Of a DNA stretch of 64,000 bases, positions 40,014-58,000 are shown piece after piece. Position 1 is the stretch's first letter; every line of letters begins with the position of its first letter. The notes beneath the pieces are model-generated. The model was given only the letters and a program-made list of their open reading frames with translations. It was not told where the DNA came from and made no database searches. The stretch is taken from the NCBI RefSeq assembly GCF_964355755.1, contig NC_092675.1, positions 24,958,912 to 25,022,911 on the forward strand, written 5' to 3'. The translations under genes and the position numbers were made by a program. This stretch comes from Antedon mediterranea (taxonomy: Eukaryota; Animalia; Echinodermata).

Positions 40014-43000
40014 TCATGGAATAGGAAGATCGTCTGCTGTCTGTGCTTCATCTGAGTCTTGTATTACTGCCGCACTTCCATCACATGTCACACAGCAGAT
40101 TTCTTCGTACCCCTCCAGTCCGCAATACAAATGCCGTAATTTAGGGTTGCACAGCAGAGAGCCTGAGACGGGAACGCATTTTTTGCTTTTTACTTCTACA
40201 GGTAAAAAAAGAAGAAACACGTTTAATTATATTGTCAATATCGAATCCAAAAGTCAGAAAAGCTTAGGTGATTCCAAAAATTGTATTGTGATTTAAAAGT
40301 AATTCCAAAAACTGATTGAACTTGTCAATGTTTATGAGCAAGTAAAATTGGTTTAACTTGGTAAAGTATGTGTGTAATATACCCTTTATCTTTAAGTATT
40401 TCCCAGTTTTTAGCATCATTATTATTATTTTGGGAAATAAAGAAACATAATGTTTATCTGTTTTCAGAATATCCTAAACCAATTGTTCATAAATTTGATG
40501 ATTCTCGTATTGTGGAAATTTAAAAACATTTTTCACGTGTTTTCTGAAAGTGGTGACAAAGAGTATATCCTAGAAGATGACACTTATTTGTAAGTGTCAT
40601 CCCGATTAGATGCAATTGAGTGGTGTGTGGGGCTTCATGTATCATGTCTACACTATCAAAATAGTGTGTCAAAAAAGTGTGATATGCCCAAATATGGTAG
40701 TCATATGACGTCATCGTGTCCATATGTGGGCACACCAAGTAAGGTTTGATAGTGTGGACAGATCTTTACTTTGAACAAACATGCTACATACATGCTACAA
40801 ACTACAACCAATTAACGGTACCTACGCTTGCTAGCACATTCACCCATGTCGCATTCACTGCTACTCTCTGGTTTGGTTTCAGGACATTGGTAATCTGAGC
40901 TTCGCATTGAAGGAATTGAGCAGGTTACAGTTCGTGTCATGACTCCAAGACCACAAGAAACTGAACACTAAAGGTAAAGAGCCATGCTTAGTCACAAACA
41001 TGTGTCGTACTAGTTCTAGACACTGAATTGCACGCATTTATAACACTCTGAAATTCCTAATGTCCATTTAGACTATCGTGCGGTATCATGTATTATAACC
41101 AATTCTTTATTAACTCTCACCGTACGTTACAGTATTGTCATAGAAAACAAATAACAAATGGCACAGAACGAAAACAAACAAAAAATAAAATCAAAAAATA
41201 TATATACGTATATATATACATATAGGCCTATAAACACATTAGGCTTGAAACATAAATATAAATATATATATAACCATGCTACAAGACAGGCTACATCATC
41301 CTATATAAAACGAAGGTACCGTCAGCAGAAACGATTTCTATCATGATCTTAACGTTCCTTTTAAAACTGTATTACTACAAAAATGCAAAAACTTGTTATT
41401 GAATAGGCACTATTGTACTAACCTCACTCCATTCTCCCGTCCTCCATACCAATGGGCACGGGTCGTTGTTGCATGCTTGACTATTTGCTGGCATTGGACC
41501 CGGGCATTTTCTATTGTTTACTGTATTTGCCCTCCCCTTGTCAACCTTTATGCAACGCACGCCACGAATTTGGATACCTCCACTACCACATGTTCGAGTA
41601 CAATGTTCCCATGGATCCGTTTGCCATTCGAATCTGTACAATAAACAGTTTAATTATTTTGTTTGTCAAATTATCGAGAGTCATTCTTTTTCAATAAACA
41701 TACAGTACTTTAAAATTGTGGACAAAAACAGTCAATTCCATCGATTTCAACTTAGAACCAAAACTCTACAAGAGAAGCATGTTTTCGTTTTGAACGGAAT
41801 ACACGAGGACGAATGTTAAATCGACCAACAATGCAGTCCTGATAATGAAACAAATGATACTGGGGTGTATACGCCCATTGCCACGTTTCTCTTTTGTATA
41901 AATTACGTCACAAATAACAAATTCACCAGGCATAGACGAATACATATCTATGTATAAGTACTGTATATTACCGTTTTTGTTTACATGGTTGTGTATTACA
42001 GAGTCTTCTGCTATTTATTGGATCATAATCTGCTTTTCCACAAAGTTCATTACCAACAATTTGATTGTCTGATTGTCGTCTGCATTCAAATGACTGGGTT
42101 TGCCATCCTGAAAAAATGAATCAATGCATTCATTTGATGTATTGGTGCATGCAGTTTTACAATAGTTTACATTTGCAATATTTGTTGGTCAACTTCGTCA
42201 TGATAATAAAATCAAGGCTTAGCCATAATTTCACAACAAAATGTACGCGCGTTCTGGAGACACGTTTCTGGTGATAAAGTCTGAATGGCGGATGTAAAAT
42301 AACGTCATAATTACAGCCGAATCAATAGCACTCCCACTACCAGATTTTGTTTGTTTGTAAGTCTAGACCAGACGGATTAAGAAGTTCAATATTCGTATTA
42401 ATGGGTCAAGAACAAATGTTTTTCCGGTTTAGAAGTAAAAATTAATTGAAAGGGGTTGTTGTATTTCGGTCAATATTATACCTCCCATCACCCCCGTATT
42501 TTGAGAATCATACGCCCCTTTTATTTATACGTAGGCGCATAAATTGCAGTTTGAGAAAAGGAACAAACCACTTACCTCCTCCACATTGTTTATTGCATTT
42601 TGACCATCCTACTTCTTGCCACAAGTATAAATCATCACTCCTTGATACTGCTAGGTCTTCAGACGGTAGCACGTATTTGTAAGTGAAATTAGCTCTTCGT
42701 TGATCTTTTGTACTGAATACCTAGAAGAAAAGTATACATAATATTTAGGCCTAATATCGTTGATACACAGTAGAACGCTTCATTTGGGCCACCCCTATCC
42801 AGGATTCTCGTATGAACGTACGAATGAGGGAAAATATTGTGCTTTGACATTACGATCAATCCCTATTCAGGATACACCCCTACCAATGAAGCACTTTGCT
42901 GGATGTCCCAAAGATGTCCCTCTAATAGGAGTTCCACTACTGCTATCCTATTTCATTGTTTTCACATTCATTTAGGGAAAAAATGTTATACTGGCCAAAT

Positions 43001-46000
43001 ACGTATTATTTCTTTCTTCCTTATTATTTAAACATTTGTTCGACGTCACGTGTTGCGTCTATGCATAACATAACACACGACGAGCAATGGTTCTACGACC
43101 TTACGCATGTCGCCTTATGGTATCATTTTACAATTATGGATTAAAAGATCGAAAACAAATCTTCTGAAATCCCTGATATCCCAGTCGTCCTTAACTCGTC
43201 ATAATTCACTCATTTGCAGTAATGAATTTATAATGAAATTGTCACGTACCATAAGTAACATGGATTGAGATATAGGTCCGTATGTTACGAGTTTCTCTTC
43301 AAAGCCGTCGTTTACATAGACAAAGTGGGATGCAACGTCCACGAATTCTTTTGACTGCGATTGCTTACCCATACCATTCAAAATCCAGCTTGATTTCTCT
43401 GGATTTTTTAAAGCTAAAAGAAATAAACCCATAGTGTTGAATTGTAACATGTATAAATTGAACATTTAATTGTGTTATGCTGTATTAAATTAATCTATTG
43501 TATATAATACTGGTACTATTCATTACTCTATTATATAATACTATTATTTACCGAAGAAATGTTTTGTATTTGTTACTTCAGTAATTTCAATGTGACGGGC
43601 GCCAGCTGGAATAACTACCACTCGCTGGTATTCTATAAAAAAAAAGCATAATTATTCAATTATTATTCTTCGACGACAGGACAATCAACTGTAATGAAAC
43701 ATCGCAAGGTGTGTGTTAATGTTTCCTGTATTAACTGTACTTGGACAGTTCGTAGTTCAATAACCCTAATAAGTAATTAATAGGTGTGTCTCTGGTTACG
43801 AATACAAAAAAGGAGAAATAGTTTATAAAATGTGTTCTTGTTTCATAGGGACTTGGATTTGATGACAAGTTATTAGGTGTGGTTTTCGTGTATCGGTTTT
43901 TATACAGGGAGAACAGAAAACGATACAAAGGCTTAATAGTTTGTAGGCCTAACACGGTCTTGTCTACGTTGCCTGGATATACACAACTATTTTAACCACT
44001 TTTTCAAAATGAAACTTACTCTTCTTTTTAGATTTCACGTAAGATCCCGTGACAGAACGACATTTAGAATTGTCACCCTCACAGATTCCACATAAATCCT
44101 CTGTCTTCCCCGATTCCAATACACTGTCACAACCAATTTCCTGTAATGAAAACAGAAGCGTTAAGACAATTTTATTTTCAATTACAAACAGAAAATCTAA
44201 TTGCATATCAGGAAGAATATACTTGTGATCCTCCCCTTATGGTGTCGCACCTCTACCCCGAGCTGATGAACGTGTTTGCACATATCCTGTCATCATCGTT
44301 ATCTTATATTGAATAGGGGAGTGTCCGAAATGTCCGCTCATCAAATCCAATTACTTGAGTTCATAACCGCAAGGAAAGTACGTTTGTATGATAACAGTTA
44401 TAATAGTTGACCTACATAACACCTGAGGCTCTTATTCAATTTTAAAACATGTATGATTATGCATAATATCAACAATATTAAAACACTCACAAACTAATTT
44501 GCCTATTACTTTGTTTCGTTAATAGCGACCTTTCGTTTTTCACAACGCGCCACTAGACTATCACAAGGCGCATGCTCATAATCATCTAAGAACGGTAGTT
44601 TCGTCGTTTTGCTTGTCACATCGTGAAACTAGAAATCATTATTTTTTTCTTAAAGTGTATGTCTTTTTCATTAAAATGTTAATGTCCTTTTCCTCAATAT
44701 ATTCTTTGAAAATTTATTATGATTTTACTTTAATTTACACTTATATTTCTAATATATCATCCGTATTTTAATCTATCACTTTTGTTTTTGTGTCGTTTTA
44801 AGGTCAGTGGAGGTTATTGCAAAGTAATAGAAAATAATTCATGTTTTTATAAAGTGTATTAAATCAAATAACAGTACCTGACATTTTCCTTGTACGCAAA
44901 TTCCATTAGGGTTGTCATAGGAACATCTGGTACCATCTATGACGTCATATTCTGATACTACAACATCTCCAGTGTTTTTAGACATGCATGTTAGACGACA
45001 TTGCAGAGAGCCTTTAAGACAATACGAAATTGATTAGAAAATGCAAATGTTTTACATTGCCATCTACAGTATTGTTTATGAGCTTTTAGTTTGAAATTAG
45101 GAAATAAATGAGGTATATTACTTTATATAAAAAAATTGTTAACCAGAGTGTTTTATACAGACTAAAAATAGAAATAATAAAACCATTGAACTTACTGTTA
45201 AGGTTTTCCATTGGTGCCCATGAATGCAGACGATCAAGGTAGCGCCAGTTAGACAGTTTATCTTTACATTGTGCTGCTCTTACGTCAGTCTTCTTTCCTA
45301 AGCAAGGCTAGAAATGGAATTAAGAAGCAAACGAATATTAAATAATAATTCCACATTCCACGTTGTTGTGTTATTAGCCAAACTATGGTAATACTGGTTA
45401 GTACTAACCTCAGCATTACACACTTTGAAATCTGTACTGCTACCGATACAGTCGGCACCTCCATCAGCAGGCCTGTGAAATTATCAATGTAAATTTAATA
45501 ATTTAAGTAATTTAACTGTCTTAATTTAACATTTTAAAGTTATTCAAACCATATTAATTTACTTTACCAATATGATGCTATAATAATATATACTATATAG
45601 GAAAGTCTCTTATACGCATGTGTATAAATATAAATACATCCTTTAGATACAAGTAACACATACTTACGCTGGGTTGTTACATTGTCTTGTTCTGATGGCG
45701 ACACCGGTTCCACAGGAGAATGAACATTCGCTAAATTCACTATATTCACTCCAACCCCCATTCACAACTGTAGACGTCACTATAGTTGTCGTCTTGACAT
45801 TTCCATTGTTCTTGGGTTTCTTTACACACTCTCCTTGCATACACCACTGAAAATACAATTATAATTATTAATTAATTATATTTATATTTTAAATGTCTGA
45901 TGTAATTGTTAAGCGTTGTGTGCTGAACTCAATTATTATTATCAGTTGTTTTGAAGCCGGATACAGGACCGGTTCTTTGTAAAGTTACAAAAGTAAAACT

Positions 46001-49000
46001 AAAATTTAGATAAAATATCACTTAATAGCAACATCAAAAAGCGCAACAAAATTACAATAGGTAAATAAATATAAATTTAGGTTCAGTCACATGTAAAAAA
46101 AAAATTAGAAAATACTACAAAGAATTGATCAAAATGGAAGTCAACAAACATTTGCATGAATAATCATAGACTCAAAGAAAACAAATTGTTGTAGAGAACA
46201 GTTCAAGAGAAAGAAAAACCTGCATTCAAAACAAAAATAGTAGGCCTACTGTACAATTTGTAGACCTACTATTTACAACCAATAAACGAATATTTGCAGA
46301 TTCATAGTAAAGTGAGAAACAAAACACTTTTTAGTGACATTTCGTAAAAGAAAAACATCAAATTATTTCAAAATCAATTTCTTAATCAAATATATTATAA
46401 AAATATCATAAAAACAAAGATCACACAAAAAGTATAGAAAAGTAGAAAGTATAAATATTAGGTCATTAAAAGTTAACTGAAGAATTGCTGGCATTGCACA
46501 TGCGCTCAATTATATATTTTTCAAATCAAGCTTTTTTGCACAAATGAAGTATAAGAGAACGAGATACAAAAACGGTTATTATAAATATTTTAAAAACTCT
46601 ACCTTTCAGTGGGCATATCTGCTGCTTTTAAATCTCGTGTACTTAATGTGTGTACGTTATGTTGTTTGTATGTTTGTTTAGATAAGATAGAAAAGTGTGT
46701 ATGTATGTATCTTGATGTTCAATATGTTTTAGTACTATATAGGGTACTGTACAAATATCACCATTGTGATTTTTCACTATTGATAGAGTCTATCTATCAC
46801 TAAAATCATCATCTATTTGCTGTAACTAAATCATCAACATCATCATCATTCATAATCATCACCATCATAAATAATAGGAAAGCAAACTAGCCTTCATTTA
46901 TGTTGTGTATATAATAATTATTATAAGATAAGTGTGTTTGTCTAACTAAACGAAATACCATTTTACAATAATTTATGTTAATTATTGCCATTGTTATAGA
47001 TACAAATCTAATTGCTGTTATTGTTATTAGTGTTGTTAGCAAAATTAACGTCAGACAGAATTATTAGAAAGATTATAGTTAGTAAACTTATAATACATGA
47101 ATTATGTTGGCAGCTTTACATTAAGTTCAACATGTTTTTCACTTCTTACACCATTTAAAAAAGGAATTCAACTAGGATCAAGTCTGGGGTCAGTTTATTC
47201 AATTACGTAATCTTACAACATTTGGCGGCAGCCTTCGTTATTATTTAACACATTAAATATATATAAACATCTGTTACAATTACAATTTATTACAGTTTAC
47301 AGAAGAAAACAAGTTACAAAACTGCCTGATTCATGACCAAAAAACATGCATTACACCTAGTGCTCGCAGTTTGTTTGAATGACGTCAGGAACGGGACGTA
47401 ACAACACTTATTGGCCAGGTAATATTGAGGTGATGTGGAAAACACCAGTTGATTAGGTTAGTATGTAAGTCATATCACTGACTGTTTTTCTTTTTATATA
47501 GATTATAATAACATTGTTCAGTTTTGGCCAACTTTGATGGAAACTTTCAAGTGATTTTGTTTTGTTTTATTTTAATAAAATACTGATTGTCAAAAGTCTG
47601 ATGGAGAGTTAGGAGAAATTTGGCTCGGCACACGGTTTAGAATTTGCTTTTCTTGCTCAATTCTCTCTTGGACTTCTTTACACATTTTCCGGCCATACAC
47701 CACTGGAATTTGGCATGGAATAAATGTAATGTTAGTATGTTAGTAGAGAACAACAATTAGTAATATTAGTTTCTACAAAAGTATGGCATTAATTACATAA
47801 CATCATATATAATAAAAAATACTTGTATATAAGGTAAGTATGTGTAATTTAAACGTTCGTAAATACTGTATTTCCCTAATATGCATTAAAATGTATTAAA
47901 GTATATACATTTCTTAATATATACAGAAAAAAAAACATTTTTAAAACAAATATGTAATAATGAAAACAAAAGTTGTATTGCAATGGATTGGAAAGCATGA
48001 ACTGAAAGTGTCGAATTCCTAAATCCAATAGTAATCCATTTCCACAACTAAACCTCAGATGTAAACACACAGAACTGGATAGATAAATTCATAAAGATCG
48101 CAATTCAAATCTTTGACCTAAATATTAATCTTAACAATTACGTTTGAAAAATAACCGGAAATAACATTCTCTTCCAAGAACAAGATAGTGTACCATACCA
48201 TTTCTTAGTTACATTTTATATAAAAGTTAAACGAAACAACGTGGAAATATATAAATCGCCGGATGTACATTATTCATGTAGCTGATGGAGTGACACAGGT
48301 GAAGTAGAATATCTAGAAAGAAAATGAAAGTCTTCCCAACTGACTATACAAACCACAAAGTCGAGTACCAGCTTATCAGCTAAAAGCAAAGTACTAAATT
48401 GTTTAGTGAATAGTCTTGAGTTTTAAAGGAGCAAGTTTAAACTGCAACGGAAATTATAAATATTGAAAAACTAAAAACAAGTTCACCAGCATGGACCGAC
48501 ACACAGACAAATCAAACTTTTGATAATTTCTTTTCTTAAAATTCTTCTTCTTCTTCTTATACTTCTTATACTTTGAACTAAGCCAATCCAAAGCTAACAT
48601 AATATTTCCTTTTAATTGATAATCATACAATTTAACATGATGGCTACCGACAAACAGTTTACAGAAAAACCGTTCCACTTTTTTTTAAGTTCTAAGCTTA
48701 AAACACTGTAAAATATATTGTTGAATATAGTAGGCAACACTGTCAAATATGGAATACATTTGTTGAACCTTAGAGGTAAAACAGTAAACTTGACTTCAAC
48801 CTCAAACACAACATGTCGTATTCACATGTGGATCTAGATAGCCAGTGGCACTTTGGTTTTCCCATTTATAGAATACATCAATGACGTCAACAACATATTC
48901 GCCTTTTTACCTAGTGATATATATTTAGATCTAGAGTACCTTGTGATGTATTTTAAAATATACGTGAGAGACGTTCAAACCGTGACTTCTTAAGCGTGGT

Positions 49001-52000
49001 TCCCACTAGCGACGCAACACAAGGACGTAACGCAACGCAAGTGAGTTGACCGATCACAAGCGATGGCTTATTCGCTTGTGATTGCTAACTGTCTATAACT
49101 TCGCTTGTCATTGGTTAAAACGCTTGTGTTGCGTTTACGTCCTTGCGTTACGTTCTAGTGGGAACCAAGCTTTAGATAAATGACCTGTTATTTTTAGTTA
49201 AGCTGCAATATATGTTGAACTACTGTATAAAGAAAATCATAGTTTTCTAATATGTGCAACTGCGCAAACGAAAAATGAAATCAAAACAATGTTAAAAATA
49301 GCCACGTAACAGGTATATTCCTGTCGTCAAAAGCTGGTGAATGGTTATACAAAAGTGGACAAACACCAGTCTTACCATCCCAGAGCCACATGAGCTACCC
49401 GGAAGAGCATAACCTAAATAATATCCATACCACGGGCTGGAACTATGTGAACATATCAGCTGGGAACAAACATCAAAATTGCACTGTAAAAAGTAAAGAA
49501 AACTATTACTTAAATGATGTTATGTTTTTCTTACCGACTTCTTGCGGCAAAATGTTCCATCAAGAGCTGGTCCTTTCTTGGTTTTACAAAAGAATGGATT
49601 TGAGGGTTGGGCACACCACAGTTGTCCACAAGGATCCATGGCACCGAACTAAAGAAATCATTTCAATAAACAATAGAAACAAAAATATTAAATCTATAAC
49701 ATAATAATTAAAGGTGGAATTATAATCACGTCTGGTGAACAATTCACAATTATTTGGAAGTTGTACATAAGTACACATATTAATATAACAATACAAGAAA
49801 ATAACAGTTATTTACCGCGGTACAACGTCCGAATTTATCACCGAAGTCAAATCGGCACTGGTCGTCAAGAGAGAATTTTTCGCCTGGTAATCCTGATGGA
49901 GCTTCGTATTCGGTATTACCACTATCATATGGGTTGTCATTCATACAAGTGTAGGAACTGTAATAAAAACATAGTGTTAATAAACTTACAGGCACGATGA
50001 TTCATGTTAAATTGTCAGATATTCCAACCCTCTTCTATTCCCTCCTAAAACAACTTCCATATAAACACGGAAATTACGCAGTTAGCTGGACACAAAAAAA
50101 GTACATTTTAAAGTGTTTATCTATTTTGTTTATTCAATTGTATTGTATATTAAAACAAAGAAAAAACTGCTGTAGTTTATATTATTAGGCCACAAATTTG
50201 TTTAATGCTATTGATAGTTTTTGAACAAAAAATACGGTATGCCTAGTTTACAAGTTCATTTAATCGAATGACAATGCGTTTTACGATATTAGAAGAAACG
50301 TTATGACCTGGTTTTTTATATATTCACAAAACACTATCATTTGATAGAACAAATCAACGTCCCGACGATTCTAATTGATACATTTTCAACTTTATAAAGT
50401 AAGTATTCGTACTTAAATAGACAAATATACTGAGTTGAATTACGATAAAATATTCTCCAGTCGATTTATCTGTTTATGTAATTAAAGAAATTTAATTTAT
50501 TAAAACAGGCATTGGGGAAACCAGGAAATTGTCATTATTTAGCAATTGTAATGTATGTCTATTGGGAAAACTTAAATACCGTACGCTGACAGCAACGTAG
50601 CTTGACAGGTGTAAGTAAACTGAACAAATTTTATATTTGAACTGACAAATTATTTTAATATTTTGAGGTAAAAATTAATTAGGATAATACTATTTTATCA
50701 GTAAGATAGATTTTGAAAAAAACATGTGAGGCGACACTGACACTCCGTGAATCCCAAGTCCATTCACAGCAAGAACAGGAAATTGAATTAAAACTTGAAC
50801 GTCGAGGTCACAAAATGTCAGTTTGCTCGGATTGGACGAATAAGTCGCGATCAACGATTTCACAACAAATAGATTACTTCGAATCTTAATTCAATAATTC
50901 GCTCAGACTGGGAGAGGTAAATATACGCGACAAGTAAAACATCCCTGTAGTATTATGCATCAAATTGTTTAATTATTTCTTTAACTTCAGATCTTTATCG
51001 GCAGTTGAGTAAAAATGCATAGTTTCAATAAACTATCTTTTCATTGCGTTGAGAGGTAACAATTCCCGACAACTAAACACCCTGTAGAATTATACCTAAA
51101 CGTGTTTAATTAGATCTTCAGATATGCATCTCAATTTGGGTAAAGGGCACGTATTGATTAACCTGGGCCAATTTCATACTACGAATTTTCCAAACACACA
51201 GTGCATAATCATCTGATATCATATTGTCTATAATACTTTATCTCTATCCTTATTGGCTTAATCGCAATTAAGTTAAATAGGAGTTGTATATCAAGGTGGG
51301 CTAGCTAACAGGTGAGTTTATCACTAGGTCAAGTCTCCGTAGATTCGAGGTAACAAATAATTCGCCAGCCAATCAGAGACTGTTGTTAAAATGACAAGTA
51401 TTGCATCTTTCCCACACAGATACAGTATAGCATTATGTTATTTCTCGATCTCTTGCTAAATTACACTTTAAGTTTGTTCCCGTTTGCACCTACCATTACA
51501 GCTCAGCTCAACTAGGGCTAGGGTGTCCCGTGGTTCTCATACATGGGTTCCATTGTTTCTATGACTAATTTGACATGTGGCAACCAAATGCATGGTAATG
51601 TACACTTGTCAGATTAAATGCAAAACGTTACAATGGAGTTTAAATGCCTTACGCCTACCGTACTTTAAACATTTAAAATCTCGACAAATCGTAAGATATT
51701 TTACTTTTTTACTTCTCTGTTGTTAATGTTAACTATGAAGGATTAATTTGACAGGACATTTCATCCCAACTATGGTTTCAATTATGTGATATCCCACTTA
51801 CCTAAAATATTGTTAAATATGCCAGTAAGCACCGGTCGTTTGTGCCAACTAGTACTATACTAAAGTCTGACCTTCTCGGGTGAATTAAAAGGAGGTTTTA
51901 ACTAGGATACAAATAATAATCAATTTATGGATTGAATTGAAATACTACAAATAAGACAATTTCAATTAAAACAAGGGTCTGAAAAGATATATGCAATATG

Positions 52001-55000
52001 CTTTTTTATATTAAATTATTAATCGTCATTAAATTCATATTAAAATTCTTTTCATTCGTAAGAATAAATTAAGAATTGCAAAAAAGCTGCCAAGTCATGC
52101 ATGGGCTAGAAGACACGTATTGATTGATTGGATACACATTTGAAAAGTTATCAAAATGATACGAAATGACGGGTCGATTAGATGAACATGACAGTTACCG
52201 TACCAATTGACAAATACAAGTTTTAGTGCATATACTTCTCATTTTCTGTTTGATTTAGTACCGTATCTATTTGCCAATTATTCGTTTTTTAAAAGGAAGA
52301 CTGACTTTCAACTAGGTTGGAAGTCTCCTGCAATGTTCATTTTTAGCAAGAAAACAGCTGATTTACTACAAGTACAAATCAAGCAGAACTCCTGACATTT
52401 GCATTTCGGTCCCATGCAGAATAAACAATAATGTATCGTGCTCATGCTCGGGGGCTTATATGTTTAAGACTTGTAATACCCATGTCCGCGAGTTTTTAAC
52501 GTTTAACAAAGAAAACATGGTATTAATTTGCATAATAATTAGCATTTCATTGGCAATCTGAAAACAATAACGTCACGTTCTATTCTGTAAACCTTATAAT
52601 ATTGTTTTCTCTTAACACCATACTCAAAACTTTACAATATACAAATTACATTAAGCTACAAACTCGAAGAGTATGGCAATACTTTTTTTCAGTTTAATCT
52701 ATTAATTTGGACGGCTCTTAGTATTGTTGAGACCCAATGTACACAGATTAATAATATCATTCACATTTCTTTTGCCAAGTAATAGGTCTACAGAAAATTA
52801 AGTAACCCAACACCTATAACCAACTAAATGACGACTGAACCAAAAAACAAAACGATAACTACTATTTATTTTAAATTACTAATTTTGATGCTTTTTGTTA
52901 ATTGATAGTTTTTAATTTGACGAGAGTTTATATAGTGTATGTTAAAATTAATTCATTTTAGGATATATTAAAGAAAATATTTGTTGCTAAAAATAAAGTT
53001 TACTGTATTTAACCATTTAATATCTCAGACATATCATTTATCAGATTGAAAGTTAAAGTCATTAAATTTTCTTTTCCTGATGTCGTAAATTTCACTTGAA
53101 GTTTGTGGGGCGGCTGGCGATTGAAAAATAAAATTGTGAATGTCAATTGCGATAAATCATTAGTCAATTCTCTTTCCTCCTCAGATTCCTCATTGATCTT
53201 TATAGCAGTATTAGCTTTATACTGATATAGCCAGGGTATGACCAGCCATTAGGGCCAAAATAGTGATGATGAATAATGAAAAAAAATGACGTTACGACAA
53301 TTTGTCTTTTTGTTTTTCTTTATTTTGACCATATTGGCTGCCCATGTTACAACTCTTAGAAATAATACGAAAGTAGACAACTACCAAAAGGGAAATAATA
53401 ATTTGGTTACATTCATTAAACTGATTAGTCTTAATTCGAAAGAGGCTAAAACAGAACGGAAATGAAAGGAAAGAAATAAAACTATATAATTGGGTAACTT
53501 TGTTCAATAATAGCATTACAGAAGTAATTTTGACAGTCTGCAAAAAAGTGTAAAATTCTAATGATGAATGTGTTTGATTTGTATAGGTATGTTGGTGTAA
53601 GGTAACAACTATTTTAATCCATGTCAAATGCCATTTATTATAGGCTACTTTAAAAACACGGTATGTTAATATAAATTAAGAAATTAAAATTAAAAGTACA
53701 TACAATCATGTTTTTCTGTTGGAAAATATTTCAAAATTAAGTCAAATTAAATTCGTATCCTGTTTGTAGTGTGCTATGACAGGTTGGGATTATTAATTTC
53801 GTTATAAAAATATGTTATTCCTGGGCTGAGGTTCCTTAAAGAGGTGTGTCGGCAATGCGAGATTCAAACGTTACTAATAAAATATGATACAGTATGCCTC
53901 CATTGAAAACCCCTTTCTTAAATCTTTTTACTCAACTACAACGTACCGAAACCTGAAAATACGTAGTTTTGTTCCCAAAAATATATGATAGAAATTAAAT
54001 CTGACTGATTGAGAAGTCAATTAACCGTTATCAACGTAACGTAACTACCGTTATCAACGTAACGTAACTACCGTTATCAACGTAACTACCGTCTGTATTA
54101 TAATTCTATTTCTCTAATATTCCAAAGTTTCTATTGTAAAGTCATGGCACATTGGAGGTATTTGGAAATGTTAGATTACCAAATGCGATATCAGAACGAA
54201 AACCGAATGTAATGTGTGTTTAGATTGACTGATAGTATTTAATTTGAAAGTGAAAATAACTTACTTAAGGTTGCTCTCAAGTTCCTTTTTGCTGCACGAT
54301 GACCAGAAGTATTTGTGGTACGTAGCTGTGACAAGAGGGGCCATGATACTACCTTTGTTTGCATCTTTTTTGCAAGCATTGCCCTGTCCGTCGTGGTCCA
54401 TTCCAAGCCTGAGAAACATTAAGTTAATTATGTTAGGGAAAGAGTATATCATATTTCTTCTATTCTAGACACCTCTATACGGTACCTACTTCATGCTATC
54501 GTAAAAAGGTGATATTTGCACACAATATAAACGTATTTAATGTGAACTTTGTTATGCTAGTTAGGCTTATAGCAACAGTTAGTGTAGATTAGTTTAACTT
54601 CACTTTTTTTTCAGGTTAAAATCTCAGAAGAGAACCTGATAAAGGCCAAGAGACAGAAAAGGTAATACAACTTTTTGTAAGTTAAATAAATGTATATAAT
54701 ACTAATCAGTGGCGAATTTGTGTTAACATTTTAACGAACAGTAGCGGTGCCGCGTGCCAAAATAGTTCTCGGAAGCGACGCTGACCAGTTAAGTTGTTGG
54801 GTCATTTTAGGCCGCGAAGCTCCTCATTTGCACCGCAATTGTTTGTGTTTAAATAAACTTACGTGTGTCCAACTTCGTGAACAGTTACAAAGCTTGTGAG
54901 CATACCGTCATCTTTCATCAAGCCACAACTTCTCATTGAGCACATGCTACCCAATGGTGCGTATCCTTAGTGTGCAAGCATGCATTTAAAAGAAGTGCGT

Positions 55001-58000
55001 GATGGGTTAGTATAGTATATTAAAAACCTAAATTGGAACCAGTTTGGTCCCATCAATGTCTATAAATATCATATTAAGTTCGTTAAGAGATTTGTCACAT
55101 AACATCTCTTTCTGTTGGAGAGTGCGGATTACAGATTCTAATACGTTTTACCATACGAATAACCTTTGAGAAGTATTGGCAATAATGCTTCAGGAGATCA
55201 AACGCCTAAATACAATAACTTTATAGAAATCAACACTCCCATAAATCAACAATTATTCTAATATTATGAATTAATAATAATCTGATAAGAGTTGTATTCA
55301 AATTATAATATAATACCAAAGTCATATTGGCGGATTAGTATACTAATTCGTAAACGTCTGAAAATTTTCAAAAAGGTCAATGACAGCAATTATCCGAGTT
55401 AACATTTTAAATTGTTATCGGATTTTTTTTAAAGTTCAAATTATATATCATTACGTTATAGTGAAAGGTAAGTGATCGTAGTGTTTTAATCTGATCATCT
55501 TCGAGATTTGGGTCTGAATTTTTAGGTCATCTTGATTCTAGATTTTTGGGTGACCTTGGTCTTGAGTCTCGCTTTAAGTTATTTGTGGTCTATCGCACTG
55601 TTAGGTAGTGAGTCTTTGGTCATCTGGGTCCATAGCCTAGCCTAAGTTATTTGGTTTATCGTACTGTTAGGTAGTGAGTCTTTGGTCATCTGGGTCCATA
55701 GCCTAGCCTAAGTTATTTGGTTTATCGTACTGTTAGGTAGTGAGTCCTTGGTCACATAGGGTCCAGAGCCTGGCCTAAGTTATTTGGTATATCTTGCTGG
55801 TCTAGATTGTTTGGCCATTTTTGGTATAGAGTCTGGTCTAATGCGTTTTATAAATTTGTATGAAAGTGGTTTGGTTGGGTGTATTGGTAACATTTTAGTT
55901 GTGTCAGGTTGCATTCTAAATAACTACCCGGATGTGTCTGAAAGTAAGCTGAACAAACTTAATTTATAATCGTTAAGAATCTTGATCTTGTCGTCCAGGT
56001 ACTGATTTTTCATTAGAAAACAATGAAACCTATTTATTTTAACGTACGTTAGTGGGCTTTTAACACGGGTCACAACACTGGTCTATACTATAGATTATAT
56101 TATTAGCCTAAGTGGACGATTCGAAGGCATGCTATAACGGAAAGCGCCAGGCAGGTTAGGCAACGTTTGAGTACTTACAGGTGTTCAGATGAACTTTAAT
56201 CGTAAATTTTTGTTAGATCATAAATTGAAGTTGTTGAAAGAAAGATAGACTGGGGCTTAATACGTAAGTGTTAGAGTGCAATGGTGTTAGAGGTTACTTA
56301 ACATTGAGGAAATTAGCAAGGAATTTGATAAACTTTGACAAAGTCCTTCAGGCAAACTTCATATTTTACTGTTAATCACGAAGTTAATAAGCATGGTGTT
56401 GTCTATCTAGCTTTCTTTCGGTGAGTGGGTTAGTAATGGTTGCATGTTTTAAAGGAAATCCCACTTACACATGGCCCACCTCGTGTGAGGCTACAAATGC
56501 CGACAAAAGGCCTTCATCTCGGGTGAGGGCACAACTTCTGGGACTATTACACATACCCCTCACAGGGCCATATCCTGAAAGCATTCAACGTATTTTGTGT
56601 TAAAACTAGATAAAACACAAACTGACACAACGCCGTATGACATGATCTTATCAACCTTCAAATCGAAATATTGCGTTGTCTTACGTCACAGTTAAAATAT
56701 GTGCAATGTTCTCTTACCTGCTGGTCCGAAGCTGTCACGTGTGAAGAAGAGAGCCAGATCATGATGTTCCTTATTGCTATCGTCTGGGTGGTTTGCTTTG
56801 TAAGCCCATGTGCATACTTTTCTCAAACTGGCGGCTGGTGAACCACTGATCATTCCGCTTGACTGTGGAGACAAAACAATTAAGTTTAAATATTTTCTAT
56901 ATAACATAAGTAATACATGTGTTTTTTAACTTGAGATTCATGGATATTTAATATTTGTTAATGAGCTATTTTAAAAAATGTATATATTACCTGTGACTTG
57001 CTGAGCATTACAATTCTGATGACAGCAACTGTGACATCGATGTTCAATGATTTGTGGTGGTATGCTTCATTTACCTAAACAACAATAATGCAATAGTTCT
57101 ATTTAGTTTTAGTTATGCATTATTTAACATAGAATAATTGCGTAATGTATACAGTATACGGACGGCGGTTCAGACGTGTTCCCATCCTTCATTGCTGGTC
57201 GCTTACCGGCAGATCGGTGCTTGTAATACGGACCATCGTTGTTTTAAATACGAATGAATTTAACTTTATGTCATTACTTTGTACTTATTGTTACTTAAGC
57301 GTGGTTCCCACTAGCGACGCAACACAAGGACGTAACGCAACGCAAGTGAATTGACCAATCGCTTATTCGCTTGTGATTGCTAACTGTCTATAACTTCGCT
57401 TGTCATTGGTTAAAGCGCTTGCGTTGCGTTTACGTCCTTGCGTTACGTTCTAGTGGGAACCAAGCTTTACATGATAATTTCAGACGGCGTTATTTTAAAT
57501 ACTGTTAAACACGTTATGTACATCATAATATCAATAAATATCGGTAAAATATACCATTCATATTCATGGCACACGATACAAACGTAAGTGATTCAATATC
57601 ATTACATATTAACGGTAGGCTTATTACTTAATTGAATCTATTTGTGCTTTGTCACGAAATTTGTAAAAGCCTAATAACATACGGAAAGTGAAAACATACT
57701 TATTTAAAATGTTCAAACAAAAGTTATCAAAACAATTAGATTATAGACAAAGGTCAATATTTAGAGACTGTAAAGTTCATCATTAGATAGATGAACTCAA
57801 TATCACAACACGGTACAGTATAATTATCTTCTGTGGGTACATGTTCCTTAAGCTCTGTCTACACTGTCTAACTAACTAACACTACTTATGTCTACATTCC
57901 ATTGTACATTAAGACACTTTCCGTTTCGTTTGAGCTGTTTATTCTTACTCCAGTAAGAAACCAATGTAAATATTGTATGGGTAAAGTACTTACGATGTTC

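Follow-up and report, generated by a model that had tools for sequence, protein, structure and literature searches.

Two disintegrin-like exons 51 nucleotides apart in an ADAMTS3-like gene of a crinoid

When a gene holds two versions of an exon almost side by side, how is the choice between them made, and is the second version used at all? This question is raised by a stretch of 64,000 nucleotides (nt) from Antedon mediterranea (contig NC_092675.1, positions 24,958,912 to 25,022,911), here called the window and numbered from its first letter, the minus strand of which carries a gene for an ADAMTS3-like metalloprotease. The gene runs from about 58929 to 40023, as located by tblastn with the closest named protein, P0005, an ADAMTS 3-like protein of 1057 residues from Anneissia japonica, which is also a crinoid. 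In the part of the gene that codes for the disintegrin-like module, two homologous exons, here termed V1 and V2, are separated by a spacer of only 51 nt. We report that V1 and V2 are duplicates of one segment of the module, and we weigh the evidence that V2 is used and that the shortness of the spacer keeps the two exons apart in the transcript. An earlier note on this DNA, made from its letters alone, had drawn attention to the pair; its observation is confirmed by our analysis, and its interpretation is partly supported.

Two exons for one segment of the module

The exons and introns on which the argument turns are listed here in the order in which they are transcribed.

49816..49957, minus strand: constitutive upstream exon, 142 nt, ending in phase 0; opening part of the disintegrin-like module, including cysteines 1 and 2 (Cys1 and Cys2)
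49649..49815, minus strand: intron between the upstream exon and V1, 167 nt, gtaaat...ctttag
49535..49648, minus strand: V1, 114 nt, 38 residues, phase 0-0; module Cys3, Cys4, Cys5 and Cys6 and the basic loop C(5)KTKKGP
49484..49534, minus strand: spacer, 51 nt, with the gtaaga donor of V1, an in-frame TAA, a pyrimidine tract and the cag acceptor of V2
49376..49483, minus strand: V2, 108 nt, 36 residues, phase 0-0; first residue Cys, loop WYGYYLGY, donor gtaaga
47637..47702, minus strand: coding part of the alternative terminal exon, ending with a stop; Cys7 and Cys8; the 3' untranslated region continues downstream
45668..45846, minus strand: long-form exon, WCMQGECV..., with Cys7, Cys8 and the beginning of the first TSP1 repeat; limits placed against P0005

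The coordinates, sequences, lengths and phases that the earlier note had given for the two exons were all correct, and its claim that they are duplicates filling the same part of the module is borne out by BLASTP, by Pfam and by shuffled alignments. When V1 and V2 were compared by BLASTP, 12 of 30 aligned residues were identical (E=1e-5, in a single comparison). Their alignment score of 39 compares with 10.8 ± 5.1 for shuffled sequences and was reached in 4 of 20000 shuffles, and none of the 1043 other stop-free windows of 36 residues in the 64 kilobases (kb) equalled it, the best scoring 21. Against the 69 positions of the Pfam family PF17771, V1 covers positions 27-60 (31.2 bits, above the cut-off of 27.3) and V2 covers positions 28-61. 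Since both exons occupy the same positions of the family, a module that contains both is implausible. V1 also aligns to the chains of ADAMTS-5, ADAMTS-4 and ADAMTS-1 in PDB. The two exons lie next to each other, are homologous and similar in length and share their phase, as expected of a mutually exclusive pair. No third copy was found by tblastn in the whole window. V1 and V2 are tandem paralogues of one segment of the disintegrin-like module.

V1 is the most conserved exon of the gene. All 38 of its residues are identical in P0005, compared to 66% and 64% identity for the flanking exons, and 24 of the 38 are identical in the same-sized exon of a distant homologue on a metagenome contig (L001). 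The upstream exon, which covers PF17771 positions 1-23, is the one that is 66% identical to P0005 (residues 423-469).

On the opposite strand, a stop-free frame of 141 residues (plus strand, 49279-49704) extends antisense over both exons and the spacer between them; Pfam gives no match for it, and it is probably a by-product of coding on the minus strand.

The remainder of the gene has the architecture of an ADAMTS protease. Identity to P0005, the one protein found by a word search with V1, ranges from 64 to 100% per exon. Read from stop-to-stop frames and Pfam matches, the domains follow one another as a propeptide ending in RVKR, a reprolysin catalytic domain, PF17771, a TSP1 repeat, a cysteine-rich region and later repeats. 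The zinc-binding motif HExxHxxGxxHD is assembled across a junction: two alternative copies of the active-site exon, described below, close with HEVGHV or HEVGHT, and LGMDHDG opens the exon that follows. A single exon of the catalytic domain (54464-54261) scored 20.2 bits with Pfam Reprolysin, just under the cut-off of 20.8, and P0005 carries PF01421. The eight-cysteine disintegrin-like module (PF17771) follows the catalytic domain, and the central TSP1 repeat stands directly after the module (Pfam TSP_1, 30.5 bits on exon 45846-45667). The guanine-plus-cytosine (GC) content of the window is 33%. A search of the ESM Atlas with the catalytic-domain frame returned unnamed clusters, in which Arthropoda and Mollusca were commonest; it was superseded by the match to the crinoid protein.

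Evidence for and against the use of V2

Transcript evidence was drawn from Logan contigs only, which drop rare forms and show presence rather than absence. None of the runs is on record as RNA. One was taken as RNA since it alone shows GT..AG joints and is called the RNA-like run here; four further runs contain the whole stretch including its introns, and one DNA-like run was used as a control.

In the RNA-like run, V1 is spliced on both sides and V2 is skipped. The joint 49816>49648 was found in 3 contigs, with ends CT..AC on the plus strand, and the joint 49535>47702, again with ends CT..AC, leaps over V2 together with the spacer; neither joint was seen in the DNA-like run. A second contig alignment in the RNA-like run, covering 49180-50200, has 49648>49816 as its sole joint. 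The same run holds a contig of the upstream exon (49841-49957) and a long-form contig made of the pieces 45667-45846 and 45195-45307. Joints that would leave out both exons, 49816>47702 and 49816>45846, are absent among the 15 of 53 contig joints listed. Contig depth runs to tens of thousands for the short form, 196 for the long form and about 33 for the intron; this is a poor measure, and we do not rank the forms by it.

V2 itself bears several signs of constraint. Its frame is open, and at the two places where its length departs from that of V1 the difference is one whole codon each time. Its GC content is 0.444, which falls within the 0.44-0.47 of the gene's exons, compared to 0.216 in the spacer, 0.222 in the adjoining intron and 0.22-0.32 in the flanks. 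Both its acceptor, ttttctttactttttacag at the end of the spacer, and its gtaaga donor are as good as the other splice sites of the gene. Identity between V1 and V2 is 0.50, 0.50 and 0.36 at the first, second and third codon positions, with third positions near saturation, and Cys3, Cys4 and Cys6 are kept in V2 despite these near-saturated silent sites.

The duplication also appears to be old. L001 has a 38-residue exon with the same 0-0 boundaries, followed by an intron of 292 nt that holds no second copy; because the exon limits are the same and the following intron is free of a copy, a single 38-residue exon of phase 0-0 is, judging from this homologue, the ancestral state. A metagenome scan with the long-form exon returned 26 loci, among which a V1-like segment is found only in L001 and in the homologue L003/L004, and tblastn with the upstream exon, V1, V2 and the short terminal exon found no second copy of the segment in any of the 26. 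V1 and the exon of L001 differ at 14 sites, of which V2 shares the L001 residue at 5 (F4, S13, H14, G35 and G37) and the V1 residue at 2; five agreements with L001 were reached in 32 of 100000 shuffles. Since V1 is unchanged in A. japonica and V2 keeps five ancestral residues that V1 has lost, the changes specific to V1, and hence the duplication, would predate the split of the two crinoids.

Against these signs of use stands a rival explanation: V2 may be an unused relic of the exon duplication that is always skipped and yields no protein product. A number of our results speak for such a relic and thus against a working V2. Among the contigs of the single RNA-like run, none has a splice joint at the acceptor or the donor of V2, and the junctions that the earlier note had named as a check on it (49816>49483, and 49376>47702 or 45846) are missing from them; in short, V1 is found in mature transcript, and V2 is found neither in the spliced contigs of the one run nor in the protein collections. 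The one contig that covers V2, 49135-49484, is unspliced and passes through the donor of V2 into the downstream intron. All three annotated A. japonica isoforms, members of the cluster of P0005, carry V1 and not V2. Searches for a V2-like protein gave one candidate and no scored match in a set of 5.8 billion proteins (word index), and only four repetitive non-ADAMTS matches in an exhaustive search of 1.84 billion representatives (P0002-P0004 were read, and P0001 was judged from its 37 matched stretches). A metagenome scan with the frame that contains V2 returned 596 pattern matches, none of them a relative. V2 scores 16.7 bits with PF17771 (E=0.01), below the cut-off, and when V2 alone was searched against PDB no ADAMTS chain was matched. 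Its loop is rich in Tyr and Gly and of low complexity. Stop-free stretches are common in this DNA, with 202 frames of at least 40 residues in 24 kb of the window. A word-index protein search with the upstream exon, made alongside that with V2, gave no match.

The relic explanation must, however, account for the retention in V2 of the open frame, of three cysteines with an even cysteine count, of the splice sites and of an exon-like GC content, all at near-saturated third positions, as well as for the five ancestral residues. Over a span in which the neighbouring exons changed a third of their residues, an unconstrained exon would be expected to decay, and neutral sequence of 108 nt in an intron of 22-32% GC should have done so. 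An annotated either/or exon pair at the active site of the same gene, moreover, raises the prior for V2. Together, these considerations suggest that V2 is probably a used exon, and we regard it as unlikely, if well short of negligible, that V2 is a mere remnant.

Two further observations concern the coverage of this region. The contig 49135-49484 stops exactly at the acceptor of V2, so that the spacer and the 167-nt intron are uncovered while the long downstream intron is covered; a reading of this end as a graph branch left by use of the acceptor was not counted, as it involves guesses about the assembler and the uncovered part. Within the intron between V2 and exon 47702, positions 48990-49175 form a high-copy repeat, with a summed contig depth in the millions in the DNA-like run, dozens of rearranged contigs with loose ends and no Rfam family.

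A proposed splicing choice across the 51-nt spacer

If V2 is used, what would decide between it and V1? Reading frame is unable to do so, as had been noted earlier, because 114 and 108 nt are both divisible by three. The length of the spacer is a different matter. Twelve other introns of the gene were rebuilt against P0005, the A. japonica orthologue, with lengths of 627, 919, 128, 1752, 454, 4307, 167, 3688, 195, 101, 184 and 737 nt; for 3 of the 12, contigs of the RNA-like run also show the junction, either as a joint or as neighbouring pieces. The spacer is therefore half the length of the shortest of them, in agreement with the earlier claim that it is shorter than every constitutive intron.

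In vertebrate spliceosomes the distance from a donor to a branch point has a lower limit of about 50 nt (PMC7969005, PMC5740500; these and the other papers are cited here from parts of their text). Since a spacer of 51 nt puts every possible branch point less than 50 nt from the donor of V1, the two exons are predicted to be exclusive, and the steric route suggested in the earlier note fits; this placement in the steric class follows by arithmetic from the length of the whole spacer, with branch points that are candidates and a limit that is derived from vertebrates. On this basis we propose that V2 is a rarely or tissue-specifically used exon, exclusive with V1, and that the exclusivity is steric, a reading that we hold tentatively and that in our judgement falls a little short of probable. 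There would be no room for U1 on the donor of V1 and U2 on a branch point in the spacer to assemble next to each other. The donor of V1 could then reach only the acceptors at 47702 or 45846, and the acceptor of V2 could join only the donor at 49816. In the tissue that was sampled V1 would prevail; V2 would be selected in a different tissue, at a different stage or under other conditions.

The steric part of this proposal faces objections of its own. The candidate branch points, A29 in guaau and A41 in uuuac of the spacer, were picked by eye and are guesses. Splicing removes human introns as short as 56 nt (10.1101/784868), the limit of about 50 nt comes from vertebrates, and some animals splice introns of about 51 nt.

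We also considered whether V2 might be real and exclusive with V1 but chosen in another way, by a contest between the two acceptors for the donor at 49816 with a tissue-specific repressor bound to the pyrimidine tract of V2, or by the loss of misfolded or aberrant products that include both exons. The signs of constraint on V2 would be the same in that case, the steric limit is again one taken from vertebrates and the host is an echinoderm, and the two active-site exons of this gene lie 1.5 kb apart, so that a short spacer is not needed for an either/or choice. The acceptor tract of V2 contains pyrimidine runs of the UCUU type, which we take to resemble PTB-type repressor sites. The active-site pair is, however, enforced by frame (106 and 103 nt), which is impossible for V1 and V2, and a spacer half as long as the shortest other intron would be difficult to account for if its shortness had no role. 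Nor does RNA structure offer an obvious means of control: the fold of the spacer is ordinary (minimum free energy -8 kcal/mol, z=-0.49), the 12 pairs of inverted repeats around V1 and V2 are AT-rich, weak and of chance quality, none of them convincing, and no Rfam family was found in 47000-50200. A non-steric choice of this kind appears improbable to us.

At the other extreme, the spacer could be an ordinary, very short intron, with V2 as a cassette exon after V1 and a doubled middle of the module. The ends of the spacer are consensus GT..AG and it contains a pyrimidine tract; inclusion of both exons would keep the frame and an even number of cysteines, and some animals do splice very short introns (10.1101/784868). 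However, the joint 49535>49483 was not seen in the contigs of the RNA-like run, as the earlier note had expected, although contigs cannot prove absence. The shared Pfam positions mean that co-inclusion would break the eight-cysteine module, no doubled segment is present in the homologues L001 and P0005-P0007, and all 12 other introns measure at least 101 nt. We consider a cassette exon very improbable.

Cysteines, alternative forms and known systems

What would an exchange of V1 for V2 do to the protein? With V1 in place, the spacings of the eight module cysteines are 11, 9, 5, 9, 13, 6 and 5, nearly the same as the 11, 10, 5, 10, 13, 6 and 5 that follow from the residue numbers of the eight-cysteine ADAMTS13 module (PMC6706451). 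The ADAMTS13 pairs are Cys311-337, Cys322-347, Cys332-366 and Cys360-371, that is, 1-4, 2-5, 3-7 and 6-8, and its exosite residues Arg349 and Leu350 stand two and three residues past Cys347 (PMC6706451; PDB 6QIG, 3GHM). ADAMTS13 is not among the PDB matches of V1, which are ADAMTS-5, -4 and -1, and the mapping between the two modules is by cysteine order and spacing. In this mapping, KTKK of V1 falls at the place of Arg349/Leu350, as GYYL does in V2.

The cysteine that is missing from V2 is module Cys5. Its partner in the ADAMTS13 order, Cys2, is encoded in the shared upstream exon (GRC-TA). V2 lacks the cysteine of FFCKTKK and has a new one as its first residue, so that each variant carries four, just as the earlier note described. 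The new cysteine lies three residues past Cys2 (C-T-A-C), and the count in the module stays even, at eight. V2 would thus drop the Cys2-Cys5 bond that joins loop L1 to the exosite-bearing loop L2, and the orphaned Cys2 would pair with the new cysteine three residues on. Such a local pair between Cys2 and the new cysteine is possible. Cys2 belongs to a constitutive exon and stays in either form, so that V2, if it is used, would have had to bring a replacement cysteine of its own. The aromatic YGYYLGY in place of the basic KTKK would, in turn, alter substrate recognition beside the active site. A rewired disulfide together with a switch of exosite is, from this analysis, a reasonable expectation for V2. 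In the metagenome homologue L003/L004 (about 640-980; QCKTSFGSTST..., DVCGKMYCTLPHFLLAQTEPLQGTRC), for which exon limits are provisional, both Cys2 and Cys5 appear to be missing, which suggests that this pair may be dispensable. We found no ADAMTS in which a cysteine at the position three past Cys2 replaces Cys5.

V1 and V2 are not the only duplicated exons of the gene, and the locus is a small hub of exon duplication. Two copies of an exon around the zinc-binding helix were identified.

56469-56574, minus strand: first active-site exon copy, 106 nt
54863-54965, minus strand: second active-site exon copy, 103 nt, 1.5 kb from the first

These copies correspond to an either/or exon of A. japonica, in which ADAMTS 3-like isoforms X1 and X3 differ from X2, and it is from the lengths of 106 and 103 nt that the choice between them is enforced by frame. 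A further choice lies at the 3' end. Over its first 19 residues the terminal exon at 47702 shares 53% identity with the start of the long-form exon, with which it is paralogous, and the protein of the form V1>47702 stops once the disintegrin-like module is complete; it has a catalytic part and a disintegrin-like part but no TSP1 repeats. One more ending was noticed on the minus strand at 40764-40967, where read-through of the donor after ...CDMGECAS gives KRRYR followed by a stop; it resembles the short C-terminus of A. japonica isoform X3 and may be a third 3' end of the gene.

Taken as a whole, the gene might encode a combinatorial protease, with an either/or active-site helix, an either/or exosite loop (across the 51-nt spacer, with Cys2-Cys5 exchanged for C-x-x-C) and a short or a long form. 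We advance this picture with considerable doubt; if it were true, up to eight enzymes that differ in substrate recognition would come from one locus. If V2 is a relic instead, the pair records an exon duplication of an ordinary kind. Neither V2 nor the short terminal exon occurs in the three A. japonica proteins, and exons of this sort are thus easily overlooked in annotation.

Tandem either/or exons, steric exclusion and very short gaps are each of a kind already known. The case of alpha-tropomyosin exons 2 and 3 reportedly goes back to Smith and Nadal-Ginard in 1989. Sterically enforced mutually exclusive exons are described for OGDH exons 4a/4b and for alpha-tropomyosin exons 2/3 (PMC7969005). 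As in V1 and V2, the exons of those pairs are adjacent and homologous, and the branch point of the second lies within about 50 nt of the first donor. In alpha-tropomyosin and OGDH, however, a branch point shifted towards the donor lies in a longer intron, whereas here the whole spacer measures 51 nt. Those pairs are also vertebrate, with branch points and both isoforms established by experiment, whereas the echinoderm pair is known from sequence and from contigs that contain V1.

Among human mutually exclusive clusters, 57 (9%) have a donor-to-branch-point distance below 50 bp (Hatje et al. 2017, PMC5740500). These clusters share with V1 and V2 the same criterion of less than 50 bp and an origin in tandem exon duplication, and unlike V1 and V2 they were validated with RNA-seq; ADAMTS is mentioned nowhere in the main text of that study. 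In exon 6 of beetle Dscam1, the gap from one variable exon to the next is shorter than 50 bp in more than 45% of cases (PMC8042237). There, too, duplicated alternative exons are set apart by very short gaps, but Dscam1 has large arrays that are governed by RNA pairing between docking site and selector, whereas the present locus has a single pair of exons, around which no convincing pairing was found. In print, no ADAMTS pair like V1 and V2 was found among the papers listed by full-text searches or in the main texts consulted.

A further system close to V1 and V2 is the active-site pair, which arose by tandem exon duplication in the same gene and offers an either/or choice within a functional site of the protease. 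It differs in that both of its versions occur in annotated proteins, whereas V2 occurs in no annotated protein that we found. If V2 is used, the pair would be the first case found in which splicing exchanges one exosite loop for another in the disintegrin-like module of an ADAMTS, and it would illustrate how exon structure constrains protein evolution, with an alternative exon that has to supply its own cysteine. V1 and V2 provide a compact model in which to test the steric rule beyond vertebrates and insects, with two exons, a spacer of 51 nt and no constraint from reading frame.

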